Part shown: positions 4,671 to 17,107 of the stretch, one piece after another
Layout of the letters: every line of letters begins with the position of its first letter
How positions within the stretch are numbered: position 1 is the stretch's first letter
NCBI GenBank assembly: GCA_029856045.1
Contig: JAHQWG010000028.1
Location: 25,972 to 49,971 of the forward strand
Length of the DNA stretch: 24,000 nt
Direction: 5' to 3'
From: Promethearchaeia archaeon
GTDB taxonomy: Archaea > Asgardarchaeota > Lokiarchaeia > Sigyniarchaeales > SOKP01
The notes under the pieces: model-generated
What the model saw: only the letters and a program-made list of their open reading frames with translations
Databases searched by the model: none
What the model was told of the DNA's origin: nothing
Position numbers and translations under genes: made by a program

Positions 4671-5558
4671 ATGCAACAAAAAAGGGTTATACTTAGCGCA
4701 GAGACATCTCATGAAGTTATTAAAATATTCATTGAGCATTTACAAAAACTTGATATTGACTTACAAATTTATAATCCGATTAGTAGCCCCCAAGATTTGG
4801 AAAATAATCAAATTTTCAATTATAAATGCGATTTATTACTAGTTAAAGTTCATAATGATACCTCGATTGACTTTTTACATTATGCAAAACTTCACAATAT
4901 TCCTACATTAAATAATATCGATGCAGTTCTTAATGTTAAAAATAAAGTTTCTTTAGATTATAGCTTGCGTGCTATTTTTAATAAATATAATTTTGAAAAC
5001 ATTCGTTTACCTAAGTCTTGGACATACTACTTTTATAAGATAAAACCCTTTAAAAAATGGATTCAGGAAAAACTTCCTATTGTCATAAAATCTCATTATC
5101 AGCACGAAAAAATGCTACGATTTAATTATTTAATTAGAGATATTAGCGAGATCAAAATGCTTGTTCGAAAGCATATGCTATTTCTTAATTATGATGTCTA
5201 TATACAAGAATTTATAGACTCTGATGGAATTGATAATAAAATTTACGTAATTGGAGATAAAGTATTTGGAATAAAAAGACCGAGCCCAATTTTTATTTAT
5301 AAAAAATACTCAGCTCAATATATTGATACAAAAAAATTAGAACGAGAACAATATGATCCTCCACCAGAATTAATTGAATTAACTCAGATCTTAAGAAAAG
5401 AACTTAAAATGGATTTTTTTGGATTTGATTTACTAAAATCAAATCGAGATGGCAATTATTATATTGTTGATGTAAATGATTTTCCAGGTTATAGAGGTAT
5501 TAAAGGAGCCGGGAAAATAATGGCAGATTATGTAAAAAATTACTTGGAAATTGATTGA
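4671..5558 (+). CDS. ATP-grasp kinase, inositol-1,3,4-trisphosphate 5/6-kinase (ITPK1)-like
   Basis: 'YIQEFIDSDGIDNKIYVIGDKVFGIKRPS' and 'FFGFDLLKSNRDGNYYIVDVNDFPGYRGI' track the ITPK1 motifs 'VVQEFINH..YKVFVVG....QRPS' and 'LFGIDII.....AVIDINAFPGYEGV' (recalled from memory). Confidence 0.6.
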   Translation: MQQKRVILSAETSHEVIKIFIEHLQKLDIDLQIYNPISSPQDLENNQIFNYKCDLLLVKVHNDTSIDFLHYAKLHNIPTLNNIDAVLNVKNKVSLDYSLRAIFNKYNFENIRLPKSWTYYFYKIKPFKKWIQEKLPIVIKSHYQHEKMLRFNYLIRDISEIKMLVRKHMLFLNYDVYIQEFIDSDGIDNKIYVIGDKVFGIKRPSPIFIYKKYSAQYIDTKKLEREQYDPPPELIELTQILRKELKMDFFGFDLLKSNRDGNYYIVDVNDFPGYRGIKGAGKIMADYVKNYLEID

Positions 5559-5918: not shown

Positions 5919-5979
5919 GTAGATAATATTATTGGATCAAATTTATTTCATATCTTATTGATTTCAAGAATTGTTTTTT

Positions 5980-6287
5980 TCAAATTTTTCCTTTATCTTG
6001 TTTTTCCCAATCAGCATAAGTATCTAATAATGTATCTATTACGCTATCGATATCACTAGTAGCAGAAAATATGAATTTATTTCCTTCCATTTTTCCATCT
6101 AACGAGCTGCTTCCAACTAAATCATAAACAAACAATCTTAATTTTTCAATATCTTTATTCATCTGTTTAGAAAGATATTTCAAATCTATTTCTCCATTTG
6201 TTTTTGCCATTCCTCTTAGAATGTTTTTTAAATCTACCTTTCCCTCTGTTTCTCTAATTGAAGTATAATACTTCTCATCTTTAACTC
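5980..6287. repeat. Copy A of a ~310-nt dispersed direct repeat (3' coding end of the SBBP gene)
   Basis: Aligns by eye, base for base, with 7802-8110 with scattered substitutions and a 1-codon indel. Both copies start at the stop codon ('tcaaatttttcctttatcttgtttttcccaatcagcata'). Confidence 0.85.
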
Positions 6288-7656
6288 TTTTCTTCTTAGA
6301 AACCTTCACTACTACATAACCAATCCCAATAACTATACCAAAGATTACCATAACTGTTATGATAAATATGAGTTCTGAAGGAATTCCATCCGAATCAATT
6401 TCACCCCCACCGTCATCCGTACCAATACTAAATTTCAAAAGAAATAAATAACTCCATTCATCATCCTGATCCTGTGTTGTTCCTACGACATAAATGTTAT
6501 CAGAAGAATCAATTGCTACTCCATATCCAGTATCTTTATCACTTTCACCCCATGTTTTATACCACTCTTGATCTCCTGAACTATTATATTTAATTAAAAC
6601 CATGTTATTACCTGGACCAACACCGAAACTACATGATAATCCCACGACATAAACATTGTCAAGAGAATCAACTTTTACTCCATATCCTTCATCGTAATGA
6701 ATTCCGCCCCATGTCTTATTCCATTCATGATTACCTGCATTGTTATATTTTACAAGCAAGATATAATAATCGCCCGTACCAGGAACTCCAGTTGATTCTA
6801 CGACATAAATATTATCAGAAGAATCAACTGCTACTCCGTATCCATATTCATCATTACTTCCGCCCCATGTTTTATTCCACTCTTGTACTCCTAAACTGTT
6901 ATATTTCACAAAAACTACATCACGCTGTTCCTCACCTGTACTCTGGGTATATCCAACAATATAAATGTTATCAGAAGAGTCAATCGCTATTCCCTCCCCT
7001 ATATAAGTATTTACTCCACCACACGTTCTATTCCACTCTTGTATTCCTAAACTATTGTATTTTACAAGAACTATATCAAAACCTCCCACACTGAAACTAC
7101 TTGTAATTCCCACGATATAAATATTATCGGAAGAGTCAACTGCTATTCCGCCACCATACTCATATCCACTTCCACCCCACGTTCTATTCCATTCTTGTAT
7201 TCCTAAACTATTGTATTTTACAAGAACTATATCATAACCTCCCACACCGAAACTACTTGTTCTTCCTACGATATAAATATTATCAGAAGAATCAATTACC
7301 AATTCACATCCCGAATCGTGTTGATTTCCGCCCCATGTACTATTCCACTCTTGTGTTCCTGAACTGTTATATTTCGCAAGAACCATATCCCAATCTCCCA
7401 GCGTCTCGGTTCTTCCAACAACGTAAATATTATCAAAAGAATCAATTGCTACTCCATATCCATAGTCATCGTTACCTCCGTTCCAGGTTTCTTCCCATTC
7501 TAAAACCATTGAATTACTTATAGATGGAATAATTAATGTAGTTATATTACTTGTTTGTAAATAAAAACCAAAATATAAGCTTGGAAATATAATAAAAATC
7601 AAAAATAATGAAAGAGATATGCTCATTATTAAATTCGTAATTTTCTTCTTTAGCAA
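5980..7656 (-). CDS. Surface-exposed SBBP-type beta-propeller repeat protein with C-terminal TM helix and cytosolic winged-helix-like tail
   Basis: N-terminal signal/anchor 'MLKKKITNLIMSISLSLFLIFIIF'. Seven ~52-aa repeats 'EWN.TWGG....G.G.A.DSSDNIYVVG.T......D..LVKYNS.G.Q'. TM helix 'LIFIITVMVIFGIVIGIGYVVV' is followed by 'KVSKKKRVK' (positive-inside). A ~100-aa tail is shared with the neighbouring gene. Confidence 0.75.
   Translation of the reverse strand: MLKKKITNLIMSISLSLFLIFIIFPSLYFGFYLQTSNITTLIIPSISNSMVLEWEETWNGGNDDYGYGVAIDSFDNIYVVGRTETLGDWDMVLAKYNSSGTQEWNSTWGGNQHDSGCELVIDSSDNIYIVGRTSSFGVGGYDIVLVKYNSLGIQEWNRTWGGSGYEYGGGIAVDSSDNIYIVGITSSFSVGGFDIVLVKYNSLGIQEWNRTCGGVNTYIGEGIAIDSSDNIYIVGYTQSTGEEQRDVVFVKYNSLGVQEWNKTWGGSNDEYGYGVAVDSSDNIYVVESTGVPGTGDYYILLVKYNNAGNHEWNKTWGGIHYDEGYGVKVDSLDNVYVVGLSCSFGVGPGNNMVLIKYNSSGDQEWYKTWGESDKDTGYGVAIDSSDNIYVVGTTQDQDDEWSYLFLLKFSIGTDDGGGEIDSDGIPSELIFIITVMVIFGIVIGIGYVVVKVSKKKRVKDEKYYTSIRETEGKVDLKNILRGMAKTNGEIDLKYLSKQMNKDIEKLRLFVYDLVGSSSLDGKMEGNKFIFSATSDIDSVIDTLLDTYADWEKQDKGKI
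6426..7509. repeat. Seven tandem ~156-nt coding repeats (SBBP beta-propeller blades)
   Basis: The period is 52 codons. Adjacent units at ~7024-7105 and ~7180-7261 are nearly identical at DNA level ('acgttctattcca.tcttgtattcctaaactattgtattttacaagaactatatca.aacctcccaca'). Confidence 0.85.
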
Positions 7657-7801
7657 ATCTCTACCCTTTTACTAACTAATTTAAATATATAAAATATAAT
7701 TTTTAATGTATTTAAGTTTATTACCATCAAATCTACATCTTTACATTTAAGTATAAAAAAAATTATATACATGCAAATAATTGAAAGGAAAATCAATCTA
7801 T

Positions 7802-8110
7802 TCAAATTTTTCCTTTATCTTGTTTTTCCCAATCAGCATAACTGTCTAATAGAGTATCTATTGCGTTTTCGATATCAATAGAATCGGATAATATGAATTT
7901 ATTTCCCTCCATTTTTCCATCTAATGAACTACTTCCAACCAAATCATAAACAAACAACCGTAATTTTTCAATATCTTTATTCATTTGTTTAGAAAGATAT
8001 TTCAAATCGATTTCTCCAGTTGTTTTTACCATTCCTCTTAAGATGTTTTTTAAATCGACCTTTCCCTCAGTGTCTCTAATTGAGGTATAATATTCCTCCT
8101 TTCTAACTCG
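7802..8110. repeat. Copy B of the ~310-nt dispersed direct repeat (3' coding end of the two-TM gene)
   Basis: See copy A. The encoded tails are identical at roughly nine in ten residues by eye. Confidence 0.85.
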
Positions 8111-8335
8111 TACATTTTTTTGGAGCTTACGTTCAATCAGTTCAAATGGTATCATAATTATCAGCAAAAGGATTATATAAGCTATTATGTATGTATACAT
8201 TTGCTGGATAATACTCAAAATTATACAAATAATAAATGTTACACAAATAATTCCCCCTATAGACTCATAAATAACTCTTACAGCTTTCTCCTTTGGGGTA
8301 TAATCCCTAAATTTTACTTTGAAGTCTTTAGACAT
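7802..8335 (-). CDS. Small two-TM membrane protein with cytosolic PCI/DDRGK-type winged-helix-like domain
   Basis: Two hydrophobic helices, 'IGGIICVTFIICIILSIIQQ' and 'YIIAYIILLLIIMIPFELI'. The rest is 'EEYYTSIRDTEGKVDLKNILRGM...GEIDLKYLSKQMNKDIEKLRLFVYDLVGSSSLDGKMEGNKFIL...ADWEKQDKGKI', near-identical to the tail of the 5980-7656 protein. Confidence 0.7.
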   Translation of the reverse strand: MSKDFKVKFRDYTPKEKAVRVIYESIGGIICVTFIICIILSIIQQMYTYIIAYIILLLIIMIPFELIERKLQKNVRVRKEEYYTSIRDTEGKVDLKNILRGMVKTTGEIDLKYLSKQMNKDIEKLRLFVYDLVGSSSLDGKMEGNKFILSDSIDIENAIDTLLDSYADWEKQDKGKI

Positions 8336-8723: not shown

Positions 8724-9311
8724 ATGAGTGAAAATTTAAAATGTAATGTATGTGGTGGAGAAATTTCTGAAGATGATCTTGCATTATTAAAAATTCAGAA
8801 AAAAATTGAATGTAGATATTGTAAAAATCTGATAGTTTTAGATGAAAAGACCGCTAAGATTAAAGAAGATTTATGTTGTGTAATATGTGGGGGTGCTTTA
8901 GCGGTTGAAGATCTATCGGAAAAGGCTCTAGCCTGTAAGTATTGTCAAAATGATTTAGAAGAAATATCTTATAGCGAAGCTAATTATCCAGAAATTTTTA
9001 ACAGATTAAAAGCCATACCCGAAGAAAAAATTATTGAGATTTATAAGACTTTAATGAGAGAGGAGAATTTTGAACAGTTAAATAAAGATGACCAAATTAA
9101 ATTAAAAAAATTTGGTGAATCTTTTATACCAAAAATGAAAGAAATTTATAAAGCGAATAAATGGGATATGGCTACAAAAGCTATTGGATGGTTAGGTCAT
9201 AGTTTGGGAACCTTATTAGGATTAACAATACTAGGTGGTACAATTGGAGGAGCAGTGGGAGTATTGTTATCAGTATTAGGAGTTGCATTCGTTAGAGGCA
9301 AGGCAAAATAA
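8724..9311 (+). CDS. Tail-anchored double zinc-ribbon protein
   Basis: Two CxxC...CxxC ribbons: 'CNVCGGEI..(19)..CRYCKNLI' and 'CVICGGAL..(15)..CKYCQNDL'. A helical middle is followed by a Gly-rich hydrophobic C-terminus 'LGTLLGLTILGGTIGGAVGVLLSVLGVAFV'. First gene of the + strand array. Confidence 0.65.
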   Translation: MSENLKCNVCGGEISEDDLALLKIQKKIECRYCKNLIVLDEKTAKIKEDLCCVICGGALAVEDLSEKALACKYCQNDLEEISYSEANYPEIFNRLKAIPEEKIIEIYKTLMREENFEQLNKDDQIKLKKFGESFIPKMKEIYKANKWDMATKAIGWLGHSLGTLLGLTILGGTIGGAVGVLLSVLGVAFVRGKAK

Positions 9312-9350
9312 ATTGAATAATTTGAAAATTTAAGAATTAGATTTAAAATT

Positions 9351-10448
9351 ATGTTAGAATTTAGATTAGTTCCACAATTTCGCAATAATTGTGTGATTCA
9401 GGGTAAAAAAGAGTTAGTTAGCAGTTTTAAAGAAGGAGATACAGTATTTTTATTATCAAAAATTCCAACAAAAACATTTTCTATCTTAACAAAAGTTGAA
9501 GGGATTATAGATTCTGATGAGAATCTTATCTACATCGATCAAAGGATACTTGGTAAATTAGCAGAAAATGATATGGTGACGATTTTAAAACATAATCCAG
9601 CCGAAGCATTAACAATATATTTAGCAATATCGGAATCTTTTTCCAGAGTTTTCAGCGGTGATTGGACATCTTTTGCCAAAAAACCATTAGAAAATAAAGT
9701 TTTTGATTTTGGACAAGAAGTATCATTTATAATTCCCTGGGAAGATGAACATGGAAACCAACTTCCTCCAATTGCTATTTCAGGATTTGTATATTCAACT
9801 GTTCCTACACCACCTATAAAAGTTGGATTACAAACGAAAATATATTTGAAAAAATTTCCTGAACTACAGCTACAAAAAATAAAACAAACTGGTTTTGAAA
9901 AACAAGAAGCACGTGTAAATATATTGGATAATGAAATCCAACAAAACATTTTGCACCTTATGCAAACGATTAAACAAAATAATTATCCAACTAAGGCAAA
10001 TAAATATAAATTTAAAAATGTTAATGCAAAACAATTATTTGCCTCTATAAACGAGGTTTTTAAAGGATTTCGAGTTGTTGAAGGGCCAACTGAAAAGACA
10101 TTTGATAGTGAAAATCAATCATTTTTAGGTTCCATTGTTTATCTTGCTGAAGAAACTACAGATTCTCTGGCAGTTATTGATCTTCAGGTATTAGCAAAAA
10201 ATCAAAATGGAGAAGTAATACTAATGGTCACTGCTAAAGATAATGATGTTGTTTATAATCTGTTAAATAAATATGATTTATTAATTCGCAAAATTAAAAT
10301 TGGGTTAGAAGAAAAAGCAGAGCTAAAGGTTGAGATTTGTCCTAGCTGTGGGGCAGATTTACCTCTTGATGATGTGGACTCAGATGGATCTATTGAATGT
10401 TTATATTGCCACAGAACCTCAATTATTCCAAAATCATATAGATACTAG
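9351..10448 (+). CDS. Cdc48-N/VAT-N/Ufd1-like N-domain protein with C-terminal zinc ribbon
   Basis: 'LIYIDQRILGKLAENDMVTILKHNPAEALTIYLA' followed by 'KPLENKVFDFGQEVSFII....ISGFVYSTVPTPPIKVGLQTKIYLK' fits the double-psi barrel + beta-clam pattern of Cdc48_N/Cdc48_2 (by eye). The C-terminal 'CPSCGADL..(14)..CLYCHRTSII' is the same ribbon type as in the upstream gene. Confidence 0.5.
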   Translation: MLEFRLVPQFRNNCVIQGKKELVSSFKEGDTVFLLSKIPTKTFSILTKVEGIIDSDENLIYIDQRILGKLAENDMVTILKHNPAEALTIYLAISESFSRVFSGDWTSFAKKPLENKVFDFGQEVSFIIPWEDEHGNQLPPIAISGFVYSTVPTPPIKVGLQTKIYLKKFPELQLQKIKQTGFEKQEARVNILDNEIQQNILHLMQTIKQNNYPTKANKYKFKNVNAKQLFASINEVFKGFRVVEGPTEKTFDSENQSFLGSIVYLAEETTDSLAVIDLQVLAKNQNGEVILMVTAKDNDVVYNLLNKYDLLIRKIKIGLEEKAELKVEICPSCGADLPLDDVDSDGSIECLYCHRTSIIPKSYRY

Positions 10449-10468
10449 ATTTTATTCTTATTAAAATT

Positions 10469-10473
10469 GAGGA
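10469..10473 (+). promoter_or_regulatory. Shine-Dalgarno-like motif (GAGGA) for the E1 gene
   Basis: GAGGA lies 6 nt upstream of the ATG at 10480, in a 31-nt intergenic gap. Confidence 0.4.
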
Positions 10474-10479
10474 TATTGA

Positions 10480-11259
10480 ATGGATTCCGATAGATATACA
10501 CGTTTAAAAGCAATAAAAGAATTTGGTTATGATATAAATTGGGATGATCTTAAAAAATACCATGTTGGCATAGTTGGAGTTGGTGGGTTAGGTGCAGTTT
10601 CAGCCGAAATGGCTACAAGGTGTGGAATTGGCAAGATTTCATTGTTTGATTTTGATATTGTAGAAGAAGTTAATCTCAATAGATTATTTTTTAAACCTCA
10701 ACATGTGGGTTTATTAAAAGTTGAAGCGGCAAAAAAGATTCTGAAAGAAATAAATCCTGATGTGGAGTTTTTTACTTATCCTAAAGACATTATGGATATG
10801 GATTTTGAACCCATATTTGATAAAAAGATTCAAGAAATAGATATTATTCTTAATGGAGTTGATAATCTAGCTGCTCGTGAGTATTTGAATATAAAATGCA
10901 TTAGATTCAAAATACCTTATATAAATGCTGGTGCATCTAGAAGTGGTCTATCAGGTTATGTCCATCCAATAATCCCTTATAAAACAGCTTGTTCTGCATG
11001 CATAAAGCGGATTAATATTGAAAAATCTAATGACCGTGGAGAGCCATGCACCGCATCTCTGCCATCAACTATGGCGATATTAGCTAGTATTCAAATTCAA
11101 GAACTGCTGAAGTATTTATTGAAATTTGGGACGATGATCGATTATGTCATGTACAATATGCTTTCTGGAGAATTTTCATATTATAAGACAATCAGAGATA
11201 ATAAGTGTTCAATTTGTGGAGACTTTAATGTTCTAAAGGAAAATGAAAAACATTTATAG
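10480..11259 (+). CDS. UBA5-like E1 (UFM1-activating-enzyme-like adenylation domain, ThiF/MoeB superfamily)
   Basis: 'VGIVGVGGLGAVSAEMATRCGIGKISLFDFDIVEEVNLNRLFFKPQHVGLLKVEAAKKILKEINPDV' tracks human UBA5 '[67 protein letters not shown]' closely. 'RGEPCTASLPSTMAILASIQIQELLKYLLKFG' tracks '[32 protein letters not shown]', which holds the catalytic Cys (here codon 11047-11049). Zn pairs are 'CSAC' and 'CSIC'. Human sequence recalled from memory. Confidence 0.85.
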   Translation: MDSDRYTRLKAIKEFGYDINWDDLKKYHVGIVGVGGLGAVSAEMATRCGIGKISLFDFDIVEEVNLNRLFFKPQHVGLLKVEAAKKILKEINPDVEFFTYPKDIMDMDFEPIFDKKIQEIDIILNGVDNLAAREYLNIKCIRFKIPYINAGASRSGLSGYVHPIIPYKTACSACIKRINIEKSNDRGEPCTASLPSTMAILASIQIQELLKYLLKFGTMIDYVMYNMLSGEFSYYKTIRDNKCSICGDFNVLKENEKHL

Positions 11260-11298
11260 TATTATGAAAAAAATCTCTGATAATTTAATTAAAAAACT

Positions 11299-11303
11299 GG
11301 AGG
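11299..11303 (+). promoter_or_regulatory. Shine-Dalgarno-like motif (GGAGG) for the JAMM gene
   Basis: GGAGG lies 7 nt upstream of the ATG at 11311. Confidence 0.45.
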
Positions 11304-11310
11304 AATAAAA

Positions 11311-12537
11311 ATGGATTTTGTAAAAATTACAGAGGATATTTTAAATTTTATTAAAAAGCAGGCCATATTAAGCACTGATGAGATATATGGATGGTTAATT
11401 GGATATCAAATGAATAATATTCCATACATAATTACCGCTCTCGATTGTCAAAATTATCTACAGCAGTCATACATCAACGCCATCCCTGATCCCCTAGAGA
11501 TTCAAAAAATTGGTGGCTTAATGCCTCACGGGATTGGCATTATTGGTATATATCATTCTCATCCCTTTAAAAGTGAAGTTTTTCATTCTCATACAGACGA
11601 TGAAACTCTAATAAGCTTAAGTAAACAACTTCCAAATTGTGTGTCAATTGTAACAAATGGAAAAGATATTAATTATTATCAAATGGATAAGTCATTTAAA
11701 TTAGTGGATATTGATCCAAAAATCTGGAAACCTGAAATACCAGAATTCTTACCCATTTTTTTTAATAATTCATTTATTATTAATTTAGAGAAAAATCTAC
11801 TCAATAATGAGAGCCTACATGTAAAAATATTTAATAAATTTAAAGATTATTTAGAAGAGAATTGGGATGATTTTAAATTATTCAAAAATAATATAGAAAT
11901 TTCTTATAATGAAAAAATAAATCAATATTTTAAATCTTCTCTGGATGGAAATTATCTGGAATTGAAGTTTAAAAATAAAAAGAATATTAATGAATTAATT
12001 AAAATTAATGTATTCAATGAAGAAATAGGCGTTAAAGTTGCAGACCAAGCTGATATGGTTTCTTTGCAATTAAATCTTAAATCCTTAGATCTTTTTTATA
12101 TTACCGATAAAAATAGTATTAATGAACTCAGAAATTCAATTAAAATTGAAATAATAAATAATAGTATAATGCCAAAAATCTTTCGATGCTTAATTGATAT
12201 TGATAATTCTGAATTACGAATACCAAATGAGCTTTTTCTTAATTTATATGGATTTTTCATAAAAGTTAATTATTATAATCAAGAGATTATTCAAAAATTA
12301 AATGATACTTATCCAATCAACAATAATTATGAAAATCTTTCGATAAAAAATTGGGAATTTTTAGGTAGGATGTTAAAAATAGTGGATTTATATTTATCTT
12401 TAAAAATTGATAAATCTTCAAAAAGGCTTCTCATCGAATTAGTTGAAAATTTAATTAAATTATCCAAAAATCACAAATGGTATGATAAGATAAAAAAAGT
12501 TTTAGATAAACAAAAAGAATCTTTATTACGATCATAA
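11311..12537 (+). CDS. JAB1/MPN+/JAMM metalloprotease with ~270-aa N/K/I-rich C-terminal extension
   Basis: Catalytic Glu context 'DEIYGWLIGY'. JAMM motif 'GIYHSHPFKSEVFHSHTDDE' (HxH...SxxD, nt 11554-11598). The core covers roughly the first 135 residues and the rest has no motif I recognise. Confidence 0.8.
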   Translation: MDFVKITEDILNFIKKQAILSTDEIYGWLIGYQMNNIPYIITALDCQNYLQQSYINAIPDPLEIQKIGGLMPHGIGIIGIYHSHPFKSEVFHSHTDDETLISLSKQLPNCVSIVTNGKDINYYQMDKSFKLVDIDPKIWKPEIPEFLPIFFNNSFIINLEKNLLNNESLHVKIFNKFKDYLEENWDDFKLFKNNIEISYNEKINQYFKSSLDGNYLELKFKNKKNINELIKINVFNEEIGVKVADQADMVSLQLNLKSLDLFYITDKNSINELRNSIKIEIINNSIMPKIFRCLIDIDNSELRIPNELFLNLYGFFIKVNYYNQEIIQKLNDTYPINNNYENLSIKNWEFLGRMLKIVDLYLSLKIDKSSKRLLIELVENLIKLSKNHKWYDKIKKVLDKQKESLLRS

Positions 12538-12611
12538 TGAATAATTAAATAGATTAAAAAAATTGATTATTATATAATATAAAAATTTAAAAAAATTGAG
12601 GGTAGTAGTTA

Positions 12612-12878
12612 ATGGCAAATATTGGCATCACTACAGTTTATTTTGTTAATAAGTTTGCTCCAGAAAAAAAACATATTCCATTTCCAGTTTCTCCTTCAAT
12701 GACAATGGCAGATCTTTTACCAGAGTTATCTAAAAAGTTTAATATACATTTACAAAATATTTCAATTGCGGTGCAGGATTCACAAGTTTTAACGATAGAA
12801 GAATATTCTTTATCACTAAAGAATTTAATTGATAAATTTGGTAAAACATTTGATATTATTGATAGAAATATAGTAGGC
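12612..12878 (+). other. UFM1-like beta-grasp domain ending at Gly89 (candidate processing site after 12878)
   Basis: Domain-level call within the fusion ORF. The 'DRNIVG' Gly codon ggc lies at 12876-12878 and is followed by the ~10-aa linker 'TEKSDAQYSES'. Confidence 0.6.
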
Positions 12879-13430
12879 ACTGAGAAATCTGATGCACAAT
12901 ATTCAGAAAGTCTGGTGGATGAATTAATTCCTGAGTTTGGAGCCGAATGGGCTAAGATAGGTCCCAAACATCCACGTTGGCAAGAAAGAATAAAAAAAGA
13001 AATAGAAAATATCTTAAGATACGTACATTATCTAAAAAAACTTTCAAATGAGCCATGGTTTAGATTGGTTCCTTCGAAAAATCCTAGACATAATTACCTC
13101 ATTTGGAATGGACATATCCTTGTTCCAAAACGACCAGAAATAAAATTTGATATCGCAATATTATTAACTTCAGAGTATCCTAAAAATTGCCCACGTTGTT
13201 TTGCAGATGACAAAATAATGGATTATTGTGGAAAACTATATTTTGGTAATGTATGGGAGCAAGAAGGGCATAAATACGTGATGATATGCCATGACCATAT
13301 GAGTGAAACCACCGCCTGGAAAGAATCACTGGGGATTGTTCATTTCTTCATAAGAGAGATTTGGATTTGGTGGATGGCTCAACAAAATTTCATCATTCAA
13401 AATTGGGATGAAAAGCATGGTAAAAAGTAA
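12612..13430 (+). CDS. Fusion protein: UFM1-like ubiquitin-fold domain + UFC1-like E2
   Basis: Residues 1-89 end 'FDIIDRNIVG' (human UFM1 mature C-terminus is 'RIIPRDRVG'), and 'IPFPVSPSMTMADLLPELSKKFNI' tracks '[24 protein letters not shown]'. Residues ~100-272: 'LVDELIPEFGAEWAKIGPKHPRWQERIKKEIENILRYVHYLKKLSNEPWFRLVPSKN' tracks UFC1 '[53 protein letters not shown]'. 'KFDIAILLTSEYP' tracks 'EFDIEFDIPITYP', and 'VMICHDHM' tracks 'GKICLTDHF' (catalytic Cys, codon 13287-13289). No HPN motif, as in UFC1. GAGG lies upstream of the ATG. Confidence 0.75.
   Translation: MANIGITTVYFVNKFAPEKKHIPFPVSPSMTMADLLPELSKKFNIHLQNISIAVQDSQVLTIEEYSLSLKNLIDKFGKTFDIIDRNIVGTEKSDAQYSESLVDELIPEFGAEWAKIGPKHPRWQERIKKEIENILRYVHYLKKLSNEPWFRLVPSKNPRHNYLIWNGHILVPKRPEIKFDIAILLTSEYPKNCPRCFADDKIMDYCGKLYFGNVWEQEGHKYVMICHDHMSETTAWKESLGIVHFFIREIWIWWMAQQNFIIQNWDEKHGKK
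12909..13427 (+). other. UFC1-like E2 core domain
   Basis: Domain-level call within the fusion ORF. See the motif comparison under the CDS entry. Confidence 0.65.
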
Positions 13431-13601
13431 TTACATATAAAATTTTTTAATTTTTTCAATTTATAAAGTTATTTTTTAAATAACAAATGAAGGCGAAATA
13501 TTATTAAAAGTAAGGTAAAAAAACCTGAAGAATTAAAAGCATTTACTTACGGAATAAAAAATAGAATATTATCAAATATTAAAAGCATTGAAGCAAAATT
13601 A

Positions 13602-14654
13602 ATGAAAATTATTCAATATTATATAAAATTGGATAATATGGAGATTAATAATGAATTAGAAAAACTTAGAAGGAATCTATTGAAGTTAAAAGATACTTTA
13701 AACGCATATAGAATCCCTCCATCATTAACAAAGATTGATAAAATAAAGAAGAACGTTATTAATAAAATAAAAATGGTAATTTTCTATTTAGAATTGATAC
13801 TGATTGAAACGGAAAAAACTATTTATGATTTTGAAGAAAGTACCCTTGATTTCAAGGATAATGATAATATTGAAGAGGTTCTCAATATTTTCTCAGAATG
13901 TGATAAAAAGATAAATAATTTATTATTACAATTGGATAATTTTGGAGATCTAACTCAATTTAAAAATATTTTCGATTTGATTGAACCTGAAATTGAAAAA
14001 CTATATCCTAAATCTAAAGATATCGAGAAAATTTTGAAGCTAAGTAAAAAAGCCAATTTATTAAAAATCGAGAGAGAGAAATTACCAACAATTCTGAAAA
14101 TTGAAAGGGAAGAAAAGAAAGAAGTAAAAGAAAAAAAAATTATTCAACCTTTAGAAACTGCAGAAGAAAATAATGAAGTTCTACGTAATATTTTCGAAAG
14201 ATTCTCCTTAAAGGTTCCAAATAAGAGTCAATTAATTGATAGTATCGTATCGATTGGGGATTCTAAAATAACAAACGAATTAGGGGGAGTCGTAAAAATA
14301 ACAGCATTATATAACTTTATAAAAGATGAGAATAAGGATTTAGATTTTACATTAGACGATTTAAACAAAGTTTTAAAATATATGAGAAAGAAAGGATATA
14401 TTTCAGATATTGAAGAGATTGAAAATCTAAAGTTAGTAAAATTTATTCCACTTGAACTATCATCAGATCCAAAATTATTATTAGAATCCGTAGGATTCGA
14501 AGGCGTGGAGACTAAAGAAAATTTAATGAAAAAACTTAATTGGCCAGAATCAAGAGTGGATGAGGTTTTAAGGTTTTTAATTGACAAGGGAATATGCAAA
14601 TCAGAAAATAATTCTTTAATAAGTGAAAGATTTTACTTTCCAGGATTAGTATAG
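13602..14654 (+). CDS. EAP30-domain protein (ESCRT-II Vps22/Vps36-like) with N-terminal coiled-coil region
   Basis: The C-terminal ~150 aa 'LGGVVKITALYNFIK...FTLDDLNKVLKYMRKKGY...LVKFIPLELSSDPKLLLESVG...ENLMKKLNWPESRVDEVLRFLIDKGICK....ERFYFPGLV' aligns by eye with human SNF8/EAP30 'NGGLITLEELHQQVL...VSQDDLIRAIKKLKALG...LIQSVPAELNMDHTVVLQLAE...EIKASLKWETERARQVLEHLLKEGLAW...HYWLPALF' (tandem winged helices). The N-terminal ~200 aa is K/E/I-rich and helical. Confidence 0.7.
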   Translation: MKIIQYYIKLDNMEINNELEKLRRNLLKLKDTLNAYRIPPSLTKIDKIKKNVINKIKMVIFYLELILIETEKTIYDFEESTLDFKDNDNIEEVLNIFSECDKKINNLLLQLDNFGDLTQFKNIFDLIEPEIEKLYPKSKDIEKILKLSKKANLLKIEREKLPTILKIEREEKKEVKEKKIIQPLETAEENNEVLRNIFERFSLKVPNKSQLIDSIVSIGDSKITNELGGVVKITALYNFIKDENKDLDFTLDDLNKVLKYMRKKGYISDIEEIENLKLVKFIPLELSSDPKLLLESVGFEGVETKENLMKKLNWPESRVDEVLRFLIDKGICKSENNSLISERFYFPGLV

Positions 14655-14734
14655 AAATTATTTAAAAACATTAATATAGAATAAAGTTTAACAAATAAAT
14701 TAAAAATAAAATATTTAATAAACGGGTGTAAAGA

Positions 14735-15940
14735 ATGGTAGGAGAGATTCCTAGAGGAATTAGTCGAAGTTTAAAAGATAAAGTCTTAGGTAAGAAGTTA
14801 AAAATTGTAGAGATGATGCATGAGACTTCAGCAGATCTAAGTGAAAAAAGAGTGGTTTATCGTTTAGCTCTAACTGGAAAAAAAGAGGCAGGAAAAAGGG
14901 AAGAAAAGGTTTCTGCTTTTATAGTTAAAGCATATGAAAGTGCGATTTTGCTTCAATTAGGAAAGTTTATTGGAATTATTCCAGAAGGCGTTTGGGAAAT
15001 TGAAAAAGAATTTCAATACACAGGGACTGAAATTATCTGGGTTGATAAAACAGAGTTTAAAACTAGATGGGGTTTAGCAGATATTTACTTAAATGATAAT
15101 ATTAAAGTAGGGGCTCATGGTTCACTTGTAGTAAAAATTTCAGAACCGAAAAATTTTGTGTTAAATGTTGTCTCAAATAAGCAGATTGTTGACAGAGGAC
15201 AAGTCGATAAATTCATTTTTGAGCACGTAGGTCAAAGTTATAAAGATATACTTGGTGGTTTTTCGATCAATGATGTTATTAGAAGTCGAGATATGATTAA
15301 ACAAAAAGTAAATGCAAAATTATATGATCTTCTAACTCATTGGGGTATTGAATTAATAAATATGGAAATAGAAGGCTTCAAGCTTCCTGAAGAATTTGAG
15401 GAAATTGGTCAAGTATCCATGGAAACCTCACTTGAAAAACAGAAAGCAATCTCAGATAGGGAACGCATAAAAGAGGAAATTGAAACTGTAAAGATACAAT
15501 CAGAATTAGAAGCCCAAAAAAGAGAAATAGAGGCAAATAGAAAAGGTTTTGAACGTGAACAAGCCGTTATAGACTCTCAAATTGGTTATGAAAAAGCTAA
15601 ATATGATGCTAAAGCAAAAGAAATTGAAGGAACTGTGAGTGTTGAATTACTGGAAAAACAGCAAAAAGCTAAAGCAGCAGGAGATGTAGCAAAAATTGAA
15701 GTTACTGGTGATAAAATGGCCAAAATTGTTGAAGCTCAAGCCGGAGTAGATAAGAGTCAAGAGGACTTAAAACGAGAACGACAACAAAAGATTAAGCAAG
15801 AAATTTCCGAATTAAAAGAGAAATTAAATAAATTTGATGATTTATTGGCTGAAGGAAAACTTTCTGAAGATATATATAAAGTGCGAGTTTCTCGAATTGA
15901 GAAAGAGTTGAAAGATCTTGAAACAAAACTTCTAGATTAA
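14735..15940 (+). CDS. SPFH/band-7 (Band_7_1, B. subtilis YdjI-like) protein with long C-terminal coiled coil
   Basis: 'IIWVDKTEFKTRWGLADIYLND.NIKVGAHGSLVVKISEPKNFVLNVVS' tracks YdjI 'VLFVNTKEFTVRWGTKQAINI...IRANGTFTFKVQDYVSLIDKIAG' (from memory). 'GIELINMEIEGFKLPEE' tracks 'GLTVTGFQIMSFNYPQE'. The last ~170 aa is E/K/Q-rich coiled coil. GGGTG lies 6 nt before the ATG. Confidence 0.7.
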   Translation: MVGEIPRGISRSLKDKVLGKKLKIVEMMHETSADLSEKRVVYRLALTGKKEAGKREEKVSAFIVKAYESAILLQLGKFIGIIPEGVWEIEKEFQYTGTEIIWVDKTEFKTRWGLADIYLNDNIKVGAHGSLVVKISEPKNFVLNVVSNKQIVDRGQVDKFIFEHVGQSYKDILGGFSINDVIRSRDMIKQKVNAKLYDLLTHWGIELINMEIEGFKLPEEFEEIGQVSMETSLEKQKAISDRERIKEEIETVKIQSELEAQKREIEANRKGFEREQAVIDSQIGYEKAKYDAKAKEIEGTVSVELLEKQQKAKAAGDVAKIEVTGDKMAKIVEAQAGVDKSQEDLKRERQQKIKQEISELKEKLNKFDDLLAEGKLSEDIYKVRVSRIEKELKDLETKLLD

Positions 15941-15988: not shown

Positions 15989-17107
15989 CTATAAAAAGGA
16001 ATCTATAGTTTTTTTAGATTTCAAATAAGGCTTAATAAATTCAATAATTTTATTATTAAAATTCTTTAAAGTTAATAAGTCTCCTCTTGCATTCACATCT
16101 AATATAGATTCTTTTAAATTTTGAAGATAGAGACCTGCCCATTGCATTCTTTTCCACGCTTTACCAGATATAGAGTTATAATATGCCTGATCCAGTAATT
16201 TCTTAGCAATAATATAGTTGTATTTTCGGTAATCATTAGGAATAAACCGTTTCGCTCGACAAGGTAGTTTATATTTCTTGTATAGAGTAATTAATTTTTT
16301 ATGAATTTTTTTTAAATAATTTCCATCAACATACATATTCCCTTTATATAAATTTAAAAAATCGGCAAGAATGTCTTTATATTTACTATTTTTTAGTTTA
16401 TTTATAAAAAATTGGGCTTGGGAATCCCGCATTGTCATTCCAGGTGAAAATAATATGAAATCACAATTTGCCTTTTTAGTTTTTGAAATTATTTCTTCTA
16501 AATTCTCATCGGAGTCCTCAATATAAGGGACAATTGGCATCAAATTAACACCGGTTTGGATTTTTGGAAATTCTTTTTTAATTTTCATTAATGCTTCAAT
16601 TCTTCTCAATGGAGGTGATGCAAGTGGTTCCAGAAACTTTACAATCTCATCATCGAAGGTTGTAATTGTAAAGGATACAGTGCAATATGTATCAGCTGCG
16701 ATTTTAGATAAAATATCTAAATCACGTAAAACTAAATCAGAATTAGTAGAAAGACAGACAGGATATTTATATTTCAATAACACTTCTAAAATTTGACGGG
16801 TATTTTGATATTTTATTTCAGCTGGTTGATAAGCATCACATACACCACCAGTTGCTACTACATCAGGTAATAATGTTCTAGCATTTTTTAATCGTTTATC
16901 TAATTTTTCTTTAACATCTTTCTTTACTATAATTTCATTGTCCAAATCGGGATGCAAGTAATACTTTTCAGAGCGAGCATCACAATAAATACAAGCATGT
17001 TCACAGCCGTTATATGGATTAAGAGTATATCGACACCAAAACCAACTATCAATATATTTTAACTTATTTATGATAGTTTTGAACTCTTTCTCGATATATT
17101 TAACCAT
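15989..17107 (-). CDS. Radical SAM protein, SplB / 'DNA repair photolyase' (COG1533)-like
   Basis: 'NPYNGCEHACIYCDARS' CX3CX2C motif near the N-terminus, typical of this family. 372-aa ORF. Confidence 0.75.
   Translation of the reverse strand: MVKYIEKEFKTIINKLKYIDSWFWCRYTLNPYNGCEHACIYCDARSEKYYLHPDLDNEIIVKKDVKEKLDKRLKNARTLLPDVVATGGVCDAYQPAEIKYQNTRQILEVLLKYKYPVCLSTNSDLVLRDLDILSKIAADTYCTVSFTITTFDDEIVKFLEPLASPPLRRIEALMKIKKEFPKIQTGVNLMPIVPYIEDSDENLEEIISKTKKANCDFILFSPGMTMRDSQAQFFINKLKNSKYKDILADFLNLYKGNMYVDGNYLKKIHKKLITLYKKYKLPCRAKRFIPNDYRKYNYIIAKKLLDQAYYNSISGKAWKRMQWAGLYLQNLKESILDVNARGDLLTLKNFNNKIIEFIKPYLKSKKTIDSFL

Follow-up and report, generated by a model that had tools for sequence, protein, structure and literature searches.

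Organization of the locus

The window, i.e., the whole stretch of 24,000 nucleotides that was analysed, originates from contig JAHQWG010000028.1 of a Promethearchaeia archaeon and has housekeeping genes on either side of the array described here (his genes, FKBP, radical SAM). The ORF listing contained seven open reading frames on the plus strand (8724-9311, 9351-10448, 10480-11259, 11311-12537, 12612-13430, 13602-14654 and 14735-15940), separated by gaps of 39, 31, 51, 74, 171 and 80 nt. These coordinates and gaps had been given by an earlier, sequence-only reading and held exactly. Its Shine-Dalgarno-like motifs ahead of the internal genes were confirmed in part: inspection of the array revealed tGAGGAt before gene 3, ctGGAGGaa before gene 4, tGAGGGt before gene 5 and cGGGTGt before gene 7, and no such motif upstream of gene 2 or gene 6. 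As it had claimed, T-runs and a convergent gene follow the last frame; the latter is the radical-SAM gene (15989-17107, minus strand), which begins 48 nt past gene 7. Scans for sigma-70 promoters and terminators, which are not designed for archaea, gave the same result as shuffled sequence and were uninformative; the proposed one or two transcription units are an inference from the layout.

The predicted conjugation enzymes and modifier

Gene 3 (10480..11259, +) codes for a UBA5-like E1 that consists of the adenylation domain only (Pfam ThiF, 5.5e-50). The match to human UBA5 (2e-54, 188 bits) was far stronger than that to MoeB (6e-25, 91 bits), and NCBIfam MoeB/ThiF matches fell under their cut-offs. 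An alignment with UBA5 showed that the catalytic cysteine and the CxxC...CxxC zinc site are kept, whereas the C-terminal extension of UBA5 for binding of UFM1 or UFC1 is absent. Gene 4 (11311..12537, +) encodes a JAMM/MPN+ metalloprotease with the JAMM domain in residues 1-125 (Pfam Prok-JAB, 27.5 bits, cut-off 25), extended at the C-terminus by about 280 residues whose fold is unknown. The metal-binding motif is intact, and E...HSHP...FHSxTD is kept in nearly all of the approximately 30 homologues aligned through it; a role in modifier processing and deconjugation is predicted, the activity being inferred from sequence.

In gene 5, a ubiquitin-like modifier (Ubl; 12612..12878, +) ending in ...IIDRNIVG (Gly89) is joined by a linker of 10-20 residues to an E2 (12912..13430, +) with the catalytic Cys226 in the motif MICHDH. 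The E2 part is UFC1-like (Pfam UFC1, 27.2 bits, cut-off 25): phmmer against the PDB matched UFC1 only (4e-7), a profile search found UFC1 alone significant with canonical UBCs at E ~1, and hhalign aligned it to human UFC1 with a probability of 93.9%, placing Cys116 opposite C226. The catalytic cysteine column is invariant across the homologue alignment. Support for the UFM1-like nature of the modifier is moderate and comes from sequence alone. No PDB match was obtained by HMMER; hhalign gave a probability of 57-65% (P ~1e-4) against human UFM1, with an alignment running to the C-terminal VG, and at most 6% against ubiquitin, NEDD8, SUMO1 and GABARAP. The invariant VG is shared with UFM1. Over 32 loci the modifier ended at VG in 18, carried a short tail in seven and was fused to the E2 in another seven.

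A sulfur carrier of the ThiS/MoaD/SAMP/Urm1 type, acting in cofactor or tRNA thiolation and not in protein tagging, would offer another explanation for these genes. In its favour stand the affiliation of the E1 to the ThiF/MoeB superfamily and the sub-threshold MoeB/ThiF matches. Against it, the E1 scores twice as high with UBA5 as with MoeB and lacks a rhodanese domain, a JAMM protease and a dedicated E2 whose catalytic cysteine is invariant always accompany it, and sulfur-transfer genes were not found in the loci. This possibility can practically be dismissed.

Zinc-ribbon proteins and gene 2 as a proposed hub

Gene 1 (8724..9311, +) contains two Zn-ribbons (CxxC...CxxC twice) and a Gly-rich hydrophobic segment at the C-terminus (residues 163-192), without a Pfam match. 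It was present in only one of 19 full loci, and homologues occurred only in near-identical contigs and in locus L018; gene 1 is a lineage-specific accessory outside the conserved set.

Gene 2 (9351..10448, +) is specific to the system: only 97 relatives were found among 1.84 billion representative proteins. In an AF2 model (pLDDT 72) a Cdc48/VAT-N-like domain (~1-170) is followed by a long helix, a helix-grip/TBP-like alpha/beta domain (~210-295) and a LysW-type Zn-ribbon (330-355), the resemblance to LysW being weak (0.023). Foldseek ranked the p97/Cdc48 N domain first (5e-6), then START, Bet v1 and adaptin-appendage folds. Sequence searches gave no support for a Cdc48-N identity, which remains a prediction from Foldseek with a single medium-confidence model and a high rmsd. 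In Ca. Lokiarchaeum ossiferum one protein of 464 aa (locus L021) combines gene 2 (residues 3-317) with the EAP30 winged-helix pair (331-461), and two further gene 2-EAP30 fusions were detected (P0128, P0136). Gene fusion of this kind connects the cassette with the ESCRT-II-like protein. Some cassettes that are otherwise standard have, in the gene 2 slot, a TIR-gene 2 fusion or a NACHT-like protein with the gene 2 N-domain at its C-terminus. Sequence and comparison, without interaction data, lead us to infer that gene 2 is the hub of a modular system.

The EAP30-like and SPFH proteins

Gene 6 (13491..14654, +; annotated ATG at 13602) encodes a Vps22/EAP30-like protein that is helical/coiled-coil in its N-terminal region and has a tandem winged helix at the C-terminus. 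The Pfam EAP30 match (26.1 bits) lay slightly below the cut-off of 26.8; the profile retrieved human SNF8/Vps22 (1.2e-6) and yeast Vps22 (2.6e-5) from the PDB, and Foldseek with a poor model (pLDDT 58) ranked Vps22, Vps36 and Vps25 in this order. The length of the 171-nt gap ahead of this gene was confirmed, with the correction that conserved codons of gene 6 fill most of it: the 37 that lie in frame at 13491-13601 correspond to the N-terminal ends of homologous proteins. The extension from 13491 has no in-frame ATG, GTG or TTG; an ATG at 13487 misses the frame by 1 nt.

Gene 7 (14735..15940, +) is an SPFH/Band 7 protein (Pfam Band_7 4.7e-16, Band_7_1 3.4e-9) whose C-terminal part is a long coiled coil and which lacks a hydrophobic anchor. 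A hydrophobic segment was found in none of 27 SPFH homologues, nor in the EAP30-like protein, so that the description of both as membrane-associated is only inferred. YdjI of B. subtilis reaches the membrane only with YdjG/H (PMC8581546), and by analogy a separate anchor is proposed for the anchorless, YdjI-like gene 7 product. Adjacent EAP30-SPFH pairs on the same strand were counted 24 times, with the SPFH gene nearly always directly 3' of the EAP30-like gene. Gene context has already connected ESCRT-type winged helices of archaea with SPFH, helix-grip and Zn-ribbon proteins (PMC10936438).

The functional calls of the sequence-only reading were upheld for all seven genes. The tail-anchored double Zn-ribbon protein held for the two CxxC...CxxC pairs and the one C-terminal hydrophobic segment, the Cdc48-N/Ufd1-like protein with Zn-ribbon held with its Cdc48-N part on fold search only, the UBA5-like E1 on its score well above MoeB, and the JAMM protease on the Prok-JAB match and the intact motif. 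Of the UFM1-UFC1 fusion, the UFM1 half held with moderate support (hhalign and C-terminal VG) and the UFC1 half on profile and PDB matches and the invariant cysteine; the EAP30 (Vps22/36-like) protein proved Vps22-like by profile and fold, and the YdjI-like SPFH protein held as anchorless. The reading would have been refuted by profile searches overturning the UFM1-pathway, EAP30 or SPFH calls, or by a neighbourhood not conserved in related genomes; neither was the case.

Conservation in Asgard archaea

The gene neighbourhood was compared across Asgard genomes with the E2 as anchor. Nineteen non-redundant full loci of Loki-, Heimdall-, Hod- and Sigynarchaeal lineages, each with at least 6 kb flank on both sides, were examined. 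All 19 have E1, JAMM and Ubl along with the E2, and 18 have gene 2; EAP30 and SPFH occurred in 15 each, both in 14 and neither in three (EAP30 absence and the pair being scored within 10 kb). The same gene set recurred in 36 non-redundant Asgard loci in rearranged order and orientation, differing between phyla; this recurrence places the cluster beyond chance. With the exception of gene 1, Asgard phyla have kept this neighbourhood, and no further gene family was common to more than five of the 39 clustered loci. The arrangement had been presumed uncharacterised, and no description of the cluster was found in the literature searched. Sequence and comparison show that UBA5-like E1, UFC1-like E2, Val-Gly UFM1-like modifier, JAMM protease and gene 2 travel together in nearly every locus. 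We favour, by a modest margin, the interpretation of the cluster as an Asgard UFM1-type conjugation system with a core cassette and exchangeable partner modules.

A Ubl cassette (genes 2-5) could also lie beside an independent EAP30-SPFH operon (genes 6-7) by chance. The largest annotated gap, 171 nt, separates genes 5 and 6, the complete pair is missing in five of 19 full loci, and in several loci it is on the strand opposite to the core genes or apart from them. On the other side, in 14 of the 19 the pair is no more than 10 kb away from the E2, in several Asgard phyla and despite rearrangements, gene 2-EAP30 fusion proteins exist, and most of the gap is coding sequence of gene 6. Chance neighbourhood is accordingly very improbable.

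The WH-tail family

As a new finding, a large family (the WH-tail proteins), united by a PCI/DDRGK1-like winged helix at the C-terminus, clusters around the cassettes, including both genes upstream of the array in the window. The first (5980..7656, -) encodes a membrane protein with an N-terminal hydrophobic segment, SBBP beta-propeller repeats (Pfam SBBP, 4e-32), a second hydrophobic segment (422-455) and a C-terminal PCI/DDRGK1-like winged helix that closes in ...DWEKQDKGKI and matches the WH-tail profile. Over the 3' 300 nt the two genes share 89% identity; the second (7802..8335, -) codes for a small membrane protein with a hydrophobic stretch (18-71) and a C-terminal PCI/DDRGK1-like WH-tail; membrane anchor and cytosolic PCI-like winged helix resemble the architecture of DDRGK1/UFBP1. 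Both products belong to the family, and a client or adaptor role is proposed.

The top PDB match of the WH-tail profile was a DDRGK1-UFL1 chimera (1.8e-5), followed by PCI subunits; the chimera score is the sum of four weak repeat matches, and the PCI subunits are about equal. Pfam PCI matched nine of 21 family members. Cassette loci contained 46 WH-tail domain matches, interleaved with core genes in L024, L025, L051 and L076. In the reverse test, nine of 44 metagenome contigs chosen by one WH-tail subfamily carried cassette genes (three of ten among contigs of at least 8 kb). WH-tail genes were missing from 11 of 19 full loci and were also found apart from cassettes. The tail is Lys-rich, the N-terminal modules vary (membrane segments, beta-propellers, LRR, TPR, WD40), and hydrophobic segments were present in 21 of 40 members.

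Membrane sorting or conflict response as possible roles

A constitutive sorting or quality control of membrane proteins, parallel to the Asgard ubiquitin-ESCRT system, would have the UFM1-like tag on cytosolic tails of membrane proteins, read by the Vps22-like protein as a true ESCRT-II that nucleates ESCRT-III. Gene 6 is nearest to Vps22 by profile and fold, one WH-tail protein in two has membrane segments and, by prediction, its tail at the cytosolic end, Asgard ubiquitin and ESCRT genes are linked (PMC9192718), and gene context associates SPFH with archaeal ESCRT systems (PMC10936438). However, a link to a true ESCRT pathway is not shown, because Vps25, ESCRT-III/Snf7 and Vps4 were absent from all 39 loci. 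A separate canonical Vps22 lies within the Asgard ESCRT cluster (PMC9192718), and TIR can substitute for EAP30/SPFH. We consider this sorting explanation unlikely.

The finding of rare variants with TIR or NACHT-like domains in place of EAP30 and SPFH is also new and suggests a second reading that the sequence-only reading did not contain: the same biochemical core put to use in conflict or antiviral defence. The part of sensor or target receptor would then fall to WH-tail proteins that carry LRR, TPR, WD40 or propeller modules, conjugation would mark sensor or invader proteins, and gene 2 would relay to an effector, here the EAP30 and SPFH membrane module, in variants a TIR NADase or STAND NTPase, with JAMM as reset. 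Those bacterial E1/E2/JAB operons that have been characterised (CBASS Cap2/Cap3, Bil) have an antiviral function. TIR_2-gene 2 fusions occupy the gene 2 slot in two cassettes, without EAP30/SPFH in the DNA available there; the NACHT-like protein sits between the JAMM and Ubl genes; and a SIR2-TPR protein bears an E2 inactivated by a Cys-to-Ser change together with a Ubl that lacks the VG. Paralogous WH-tail arrays have sensor-type repeats, some loci adjoin BrxC/BrxD-like, HEPN/nucleotidyltransferase, RelA/SpoT-TPR or PIN genes, and one MAG carries two cassettes with different accessory sets (L024, L026). Against a defence role, PADLOC recognised the E1 and JAB by generic similarity alone and returned no match for gene 2, EAP30 or SPFH, the genes flanking the array in the window are housekeeping genes, immune-type fusions are rare (~4 of ~100 gene 2 relatives), LRR, TPR and WD40 are also ordinary scaffold modules, and Asgard genomes show rampant shuffling of domains (bioRxiv 10.1101/2020.10.19.343400). 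E2 relatives were not found on viral contigs, which is neutral as to defence. The antiviral reading has to be kept as a possibility, to which we give clearly less than even credence; if true, UFMylation in eukaryotes would derive from an immune module of archaea. The physiological role, membrane sorting versus conflict response, remains unsettled between the readings.

Proposed UFM1-type conjugation

For the favoured modular conjugation system, cleavage of the fusion, transfer via a thioester and the identity of targets are inferences without biochemical data. The complete UFM1-type kit is conserved across Asgard lineages, therefore the pathway would have been already present in the closest archaeal relatives of eukaryotes; UFM1-type tagging, thought to be largely a eukaryotic invention, would occur in Asgard archaea as a compact, testable gene cluster. 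JAMM would cut the Ubl-E2 fusion after Gly89, elsewhere trim short tails or stay idle where the gene ends at VG, and also reverse conjugation. The E1 would adenylate the freed glycine and, via a thioester, the modifier would be handed to Cys226 of the E2. Gene 2, with a Cdc48-N-like domain that we take to be of the kind binding beta-grasp folds, may couple the charged E2 or the tag to the output module, in the window presumably the Vps22-like tandem winged-helix protein and its SPFH partner. By analogy with YdjI, the latter may assemble a membrane scaffold via the separate anchor. Targeting would be supplied by the WH-tail proteins as interchangeable adaptors, substrates or both; a protein fusing the E2 to a WH-tail exists (P0042).

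Conservation of the cluster in Asgard archaea

Seven open reading frames on the + strand, separated by 39, 31, 51, 74, 171 and 80 nt, had been proposed in the sequence-only reading to form one co-directional array, and their coordinates and spacing were confirmed. SD-like motifs, claimed for the internal genes, were present ahead of genes 3, 4, 5 and 7, and the T-runs and the convergent gene described 3' of gene 7 were found as well, the latter being a radical-SAM gene. The array was present as identical copies in four independent metagenome assemblies. The G+C content of the window is about 29 %; promoter and terminator scans, which are not built for archaea, gave results indistinguishable from shuffled sequence, and tRNA or Rfam matches were not found in the window.

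Loci were collected around the E2 by exact-protein look-ups and by scanning a set of genomes with a single representative for each GTDB species, yielding 36 non-redundant E2 loci, 19 of them with at least 6 kb on both sides (full loci). All open reading frames of these loci were searched with profiles iterated from the window proteins. E1, JAMM protease and ubiquitin-like modifier (Ubl) genes were present in 19 of the 19 full loci, gene 2 in 18, the EAP30 gene and the SPFH gene in 15 each, and the latter two jointly in 14. EAP30 and SPFH genes formed 24 same-strand pairs of direct neighbours; order and orientation of the genes varied among lineages. Clustering of 39 loci revealed no further gene family common to more than five of them. 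The homologues carry NCBI names of Promethearchaeota (Lokiarchaeia), Odin-, Hod- and Heimdallarchaeota. The cassette was also found in closed genomes, among them Ca. Lokiarchaeum ossiferum, Ca. Heimdallarchaeum endolithica and Ca. H. aukensis; Prometheoarchaeum syntrophicum MK-D1 was not among the genomes returned by the pattern scan. The proposed linkage of all seven genes held for genes 2 to 7, which form one conserved functional neighbourhood, and failed for gene 1 (8724-9311), coding for a tail-anchored protein with two Zn-ribbons and one C-terminal hydrophobic segment: present in one of the 19 full loci, it is a local addition outside the conserved set. What sequence and comparison establish is which parts the cluster has, that the catalytic residues are in place and that the linkage is conserved. 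The cluster is genuine and conserved, belongs to the known type of Ubl conjugation operons, and bears on how UFMylation and the handling of tags by winged-helix proteins arose.

Two observations concern the assignment of loci to genomes. The metagenome-assembled genome 33X4 (JAHLWS01) contains two cassettes with different partners (loci L024 and L026), one with eight winged-helix tail genes and no EAP30 or SPFH gene, the other with EAP30, SPFH and two winged-helix tail genes. An Asgard-type UFC1-like E2 fragment together with winged-helix tail genes was encountered in a bacterial bin (loci L041 and L049; JANBVM01, Patescibacteria group bacterium AMOR_Bin_1762); this label is probably a binning error.

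The predicted conjugation core

A UBA5-type E1 is characterised by a ThiF-fold adenylation domain, a catalytic cysteine in the crossover loop and a four-cysteine Zn site. Gene 3 (10480-11259) aligned with human UBA5 over residues 1-257 (2e-54, 188 bits, compared to 91 bits for MoeB), and ACxAC, the catalytic cysteine in GxxC(T/A)ASLP and the C-terminal CxxC were all kept, hence the UBA5-type features are met. The protein stops at residue 259, just past the adenylation domain, and lacks the C-terminal UFM1-interacting and UFC1-binding sequences of UBA5; its homologues are 251-311 aa long. The assignment as UBA5-type E1 is an inference from sequence alone, but a very well supported one.

Gene 5 (12612-13430) codes for a fusion of modifier and E2. 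For an E2 of the UFC1 type, as opposed to a canonical UBC protein, a UBC core, an extra N-terminal helix and a catalytic cysteine in a context like ...KIC(L)TDH are expected. The C-terminal part of gene 5 matched Pfam UFC1 with 27.2 bits (cut-off 25) and UQ_con with 13.7 bits, and in PDB searches with the E2, both as single sequence and as profile, the only significant chains were those of UFC1. An hhalign comparison with human UFC1 reached a probability of 93.9 % over 146 columns and aligned Cys116 to the invariant C226; residues 19-115 of the UFC1 sequence used here were verified against the PDB match. The UFC1 features are met, and we infer with high confidence that this part is a UFC1-type E2.

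The evidence for the modifier, the N-terminal 89 residues of gene 5, is of moderate strength. UFM1 is a beta-grasp protein of about 85 aa with a mature C-terminus of Val-Gly. A profile of 32 Ubl sequences was aligned by hhalign to human UFM1 up to the terminal Val-Gly with a probability of 64.5 % (range 57-65 %), compared to at most 6 % each for ubiquitin, NEDD8, SUMO1 and GABARAP. Searches with HMMER and a six-sequence Ubl profile did not detect UFM1 in PDB or Pfam, so that the signal comes from hhalign alone. All 32 homologues have VG at the end of the profile: in 18 the gene stops there, in 7 a tail of 1-9 residues follows and in 7 a fusion to the E2, as expected for a modifier activated at a C-terminal glycine. 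The N-terminal part of gene 5 is a putative UFM1-like Ubl, predicted from sequence. Asgard homologues of Ufm1 have been found by structure (PMC12962969).

The protease of the core, gene 4 (11311-12537), is a JAMM protease with the Glu and the HSHP...FHSxTD motif, both retained with few exceptions in the alignment of about 30 homologues that cover the motif, and a C-terminal extension of about 280 residues without an assigned fold. A cysteine protease of the UFSP type was not found, the JAMM/Prok-JAB protein being the sole protease of the conserved set.

The proposed hub protein and the EAP30-SPFH module

Gene 2 (9351-10448), the proposed hub protein, had no match in Pfam and belongs to a small family (97 matches among 1.84 billion representative proteins). 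Its AF2 model (pLDDT 72) was matched by Foldseek to the N domains of p97/Cdc48 (5e-6) and in the middle to helix-grip folds (START, Bet v1, adaptin appendage). The C-terminus of the protein is, by a weak match, a LysW-type Zn-ribbon. N domains of Cdc48/VAT consist of two subdomains, a double-psi barrel and a beta-clam. A sequence signal for Cdc48-N was not found in gene 2 by Pfam or by hhalign against a verified CDC48_N domain, and the Cdc48-N-like domain, predicted from the model and resting on the fold search only, remains a possibility. The helix-grip and Zn-ribbon half of gene 2 was also observed alone, at the C-terminus of two large surface-type proteins with FG-GAP/PQQ beta-propellers (P0149 and P0156), mirroring the arrangement of winged-helix tails appended to such propeller proteins.

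Gene 6 (13602-14654) is a Vps22/EAP30-like protein. Its profile matched human SNF8 over both winged helices (1.2e-6) and yeast Vps22 (2.6e-5) in the PDB. With a low-confidence model, Foldseek returned Vps22, then Vps36, then Vps25, the top three matches being Vps22 chains. Pfam EAP30 gave 26.1 bits, below the cut-off of 26.8, which several homologues exceed. The tandem winged helix characteristic of the family is present and gene 6 is almost certainly an EAP30 family member. A role as an E3 related to UFL1 and DDRGK1 was considered and rejected: profile and fold searches were both headed by Vps22, Vps36 and Vps25, and in Foldseek a UFL1-DDRGK1 chimera came 12th with an E-value of 0.03. The DDRGK1/PCI-like signal was assigned to the winged-helix tail family encoded upstream, not to gene 6.

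The start of gene 6 is uncertain. The N-termini of homologues align with 37 codons read in frame at 13491-13601, a stretch without any in-frame ATG, GTG or TTG; an ATG at 13487 is one base off frame. The true start almost certainly lies upstream of 13602, as inferred from sequence alone; the missing codon may be due to a start codon outside the canonical set, to a genuine frameshift or to truncation. Gene calls of other assemblies for this protein also have 350 aa, a few 338 or 190.

Gene 7 (14735-15940) is an SPFH protein, with 59.8 bits to Band_7 (cut-off 23.6) and 37.1 bits to Band_7_1 (cut-off 24). E, K, A and Q abound in its C-terminal region, giving the expected combination of SPFH domain and coiled coil. 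A hydrophobic window was absent from gene 7 and from 27 of 27 homologues, hence the protein lacks an anchor of the kind found in flotillins, stomatins and HflK/C. YdjI of B. subtilis has no anchor either and gains access to the membrane via YdjG/H (PMC8581546).

Could the module represent a true ESCRT-II sorting pathway? The C-terminal tandem winged helix of gene 6, with human and yeast Vps22 as best matches, resembles ESCRT-II (Vps22/EAP30, Vps36, Vps25). Gene 6 differs, however, by a long N-terminal coiled-coil region, by its pairing with an SPFH protein and by its separation from Vps25, ESCRT-III and Vps4, none of which was found among the neighbours checked in 39 loci, a test of gene context only. 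The canonical Vps22 of Asgard archaea (PMC9192718) is a different gene, to which gene 6 is paralogous. There is no evidence that gene 6 takes part in the ESCRT pathway, and we regard sorting by a true ESCRT-II pathway as unlikely. In the Ca. Lokiarchaeum ossiferum locus (L021, CP104013), one 464-aa protein (6108-7502, - strand) combines gene 2 (residues 3-317) with the EAP30 winged-helix pair (331-461); the fusion lacks the gene 2 Zn-ribbon, and neither EAP30 nor SPFH is encoded separately within 10 kb. More fusions of gene 2 and EAP30 were found by exhaustive search. As Ca. Lokiarchaeum ossiferum is cultured, its fusion is open to experiment.

A likeness is also seen to PspA-YdjGHI of B. subtilis and the archaeal ESCRT loci of Makarova et al. 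2024, where anchor-less SPFH proteins occur beside small Zn-ribbon or membrane proteins and components of the ESCRT family, and helix-grip/TBP-like and Zn-ribbon domains are shared with the Asgard loci. That study, anchored on Vps4, tied archaeal ESCRT-type winged helices by gene context to SPFH, helix-grip, Zn-ribbon and PCI-like domains and did not mention UFM1 or UFC1 (PMC10936438). In contrast to these systems, the Asgard cassette loci lack PspA/ESCRT-III and Vps4 and have a Ubl conjugation cassette as partner.

The winged-helix tail family

Both - strand genes upstream of the array (5980..7656 and 7802..8335) end in a module of about 85 residues, the WH-tail, consisting of a winged helix, a helix and a Lys-rich end (...DWEKQDKGKI). 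The 3' ends coding for it (5979-6278 and 7801-8100) share 89 % DNA identity over 300 nt, a sign that two genes unrelated in the rest of their length have probably acquired a common tail module recently, by duplication or gene conversion. In the first of these genes, coding for 558 aa, positions 6476-7533 contain about seven tandem units of about 156 nt (52 aa) with 66-83 % identity to the reference unit, recognised as SBBP beta-propeller repeats.

In cassette loci the module was counted 46 times. It almost always forms the very end of the protein, and in some loci the genes that carry it are interspersed among those of the core. In the reverse test, cassette genes were present on 9 of 44 metagenome contigs picked by one WH-tail subfamily, two of them with 8-9 WH-tail genes; a single subfamily was used because the alignment of the full family is too divergent. 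The N-terminal parts are diverse: membrane bundles, SBBP/FG-GAP propellers, LRR, TPR, WD40, CBM96 and Cdc48-N with AAA. The last combination was observed within a cassette locus (L076, 12582-14615), where a 677-aa WH-tail protein has CDC48_N, verified by Pfam, at its N-terminus and next to it an AAA/Cdc6-lid ATPase. One fusion of E2 and WH-tail is known (P0042), but its gene is located at a contig edge and the context is uninformative.

Among 21 WH-tail members, nine matched Pfam PCI and one E3_UFM1_ligase. In the PDB, the WH-tail profile matched CSN2, CSN4, Rpn5 and Rpn6 at about 3e-4; the best match was a DDRGK1-UFL1 chimera (1.8e-5), yet this value is the sum of four weak repeats, and DDRGK1 alone (0.012) and UFL1 (0.086) scored lower. 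A CDK5RAP3-like protein was not seen. We regard the module as PCI-like. As in PCI-MPN complexes (proteasome lid, COP9 signalosome, eIF3), a PCI-type winged helix is followed by a C-terminal helix, and the genes lie together with one for a JAMM/MPN+ protease having a long C-terminal extension. PCI subunits typically begin with a solenoid of helical repeats; the N-terminal modules of the WH-tail proteins are highly varied. This likeness comes from sequence and gene context; complex formation has not been shown.

Variant cassettes and the role of the cluster

In three loci the position of gene 2 is occupied by variants adjoining E1, JAMM, Ubl and E2: two TIR_2-gene 2 fusions and one NACHT-like protein whose C-terminus is the gene 2 N-domain (L094, 6990-8657; L096, 6859-8532; L097, 2138-4711). 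No EAP30 or SPFH gene was present in the available sequence of these loci. The gene 2 position is likely a swap point of the cassette. A further protein of at least 897 aa (L035, 3-2696) has the order SIR2_2, TPR, UFC1-like E2 and Ubl; its E2 has serine in place of the cysteine (YVMISHDH), and VG is missing at the end of its Ubl. Tentatively, this protein may represent a derivative without catalytic activity that was taken up into an architecture of the conflict type.

The enzymatic steps are inferred. On balance we favour a mechanism that is neutral with respect to the role, without strong confidence: E1 and E2 would charge the modifier, and the JAMM protease would release it and strip it from targets. 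Gene 2 would be the hub joining the cassette to the output module, in this window the Vps22-like protein and the SPFH scaffold, which like YdjI would need another protein for membrane access. The WH-tail proteins would act as exchangeable adaptors, substrates, or both.

A role in conflict or stress response has to be considered for the cluster. In its favour are the TIR, NACHT and SIR2 variants, the arrays of sensor-like adaptors and the defence genes beside some loci. Bacterial precedents exist: the antiviral E1/E2/JAB operons (CBASS Cap2-Cap3, Bil/Bub) also encode E1, E2 and JAB in an operon, in Bil also a Ubl, and carry modular effector domains, comparable to the TIR and NACHT variants in Asgard loci. 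Against this role, the window is flanked by genes of ordinary metabolism (his genes, FKBP, PHP, radical SAM enzymes), the eukaryotic descendant points to a constitutive membrane pathway, and specific PADLOC matches are lacking. The PADLOC defence classification gave generic matches only: at most 63.9 bits for E1-E2 models on the E1, compared to 188 for UBA5, 21 bits for JAB and nothing for Ubl, gene 2, EAP30 and SPFH. The NCBIfam model 6A-MBL cap2_3 reached 47.6 bits on the cluster with a cut-off of 320, and the known antiviral Ubl-conjugation models (CBASS type II, Bil, 6A-MBL) were not met. Relatives of the E2 were not found in IMG/VR viral contigs, a result neutral with regard to defence. 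Unlike in the bacterial operons, the Asgard E1 and E2 are of the UBA5 and UFC1 type and separate proteins, the partner genes are others, and no defence role has been shown. The balance tips slightly against a conflict or stress role. The ratings for this role and for ESCRT-II sorting are independent and need not add up to one.

Relation to eukaryotic UFMylation

With eukaryotic UFMylation the cluster shares a UBA5-like E1 with catalytic cysteine and Zn site, a UFC1-like E2 with its cysteine at the position of Cys116, a modifier ending in VG with UFM1 as best alignment, and winged-helix proteins beside the cassette, some of them membrane-anchored with a PCI-like winged helix as DDRGK1. It differs in the protease, a JAMM metalloprotease instead of a UFSP cysteine protease, in the E1 without the C-terminal tail binding UFM1 and UFC1, in the lack of a clear UFL1 or CDK5RAP3 orthologue, in the fusion of modifier and E2 in the window lineage and in the additional putative Cdc48-N-like hub, Vps22-like and SPFH proteins. 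As the E1 and E2 features were met, but the UFSP protease, the UBA5 tail and a clear UFL1 or CDK5RAP3 were not, the cluster has to be seen as a UFM1-type system rather than the eukaryotic pathway.

The origin of UFMylation is unsettled. Phylogenomics in 2023 considered UFM1 and UFC1 as eukaryote-only and UBA5 as derived from bacteria, and concluded that the UFL1/DDRGK1-like proteins of Asgard archaea must predate UFM1 and act without it (PMC10183829); in the literature searched, this is the sole paper naming both UFC1 and Asgard. A structural survey of 2026 reported Ufm1-like proteins in Asgard archaea without discussing neighbours or partners (PMC12962969). A description of the cluster was not found in the literature searched, which excluded subscription-only papers and supplementary tables, so an earlier mention is possible. 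At this locus, the genes for the modifier, the UBA5-like E1, the UFC1-like E2, the protease and the winged-helix proteins all lie in one cluster. Its occurrence across Asgard lineages, among them Ca. Lokiarchaeum ossiferum as a cultured organism, opens three questions to direct testing: what UFM1 did ancestrally, where winged-helix E3 components came from, and whether there is a second connection of Ubl and ESCRT-II-type proteins. The TIR and NACHT variants suggest that another eukaryotic housekeeping pathway may stem from a prokaryotic conflict system.

A bolder reading derives eukaryotic UFMylation from a modular Asgard system: a large family of PCI-type winged-helix adaptors, exchangeable for one another and ancestral to DDRGK1 and UFL1, would have steered a single UFM1/UBA5/UFC1 core; JAMM, in policing this core, would anticipate PCI-MPN assemblies like proteasome lid and signalosome; and through the Cdc48-N-like hub the core would have been connected either with a membrane module of Vps22-like and SPFH proteins or with immune effectors (TIR, STAND). 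If this were true, UFM1 would originally have served in responding to stress or conflict close to the membrane rather than in releasing ribosomes at the ER. That all these elements hold jointly is improbable.

Outside the array, two regions of the window had eukaryote-flavoured Pfam matches: an ATP-grasp domain of the inositol 1,3,4-trisphosphate 5/6-kinase type at 4671-5558 (60.5 bits) and a ThuA/IFT52-GIFT-like domain with an acidic tail at 245-1066 (32.5-33.6 bits).
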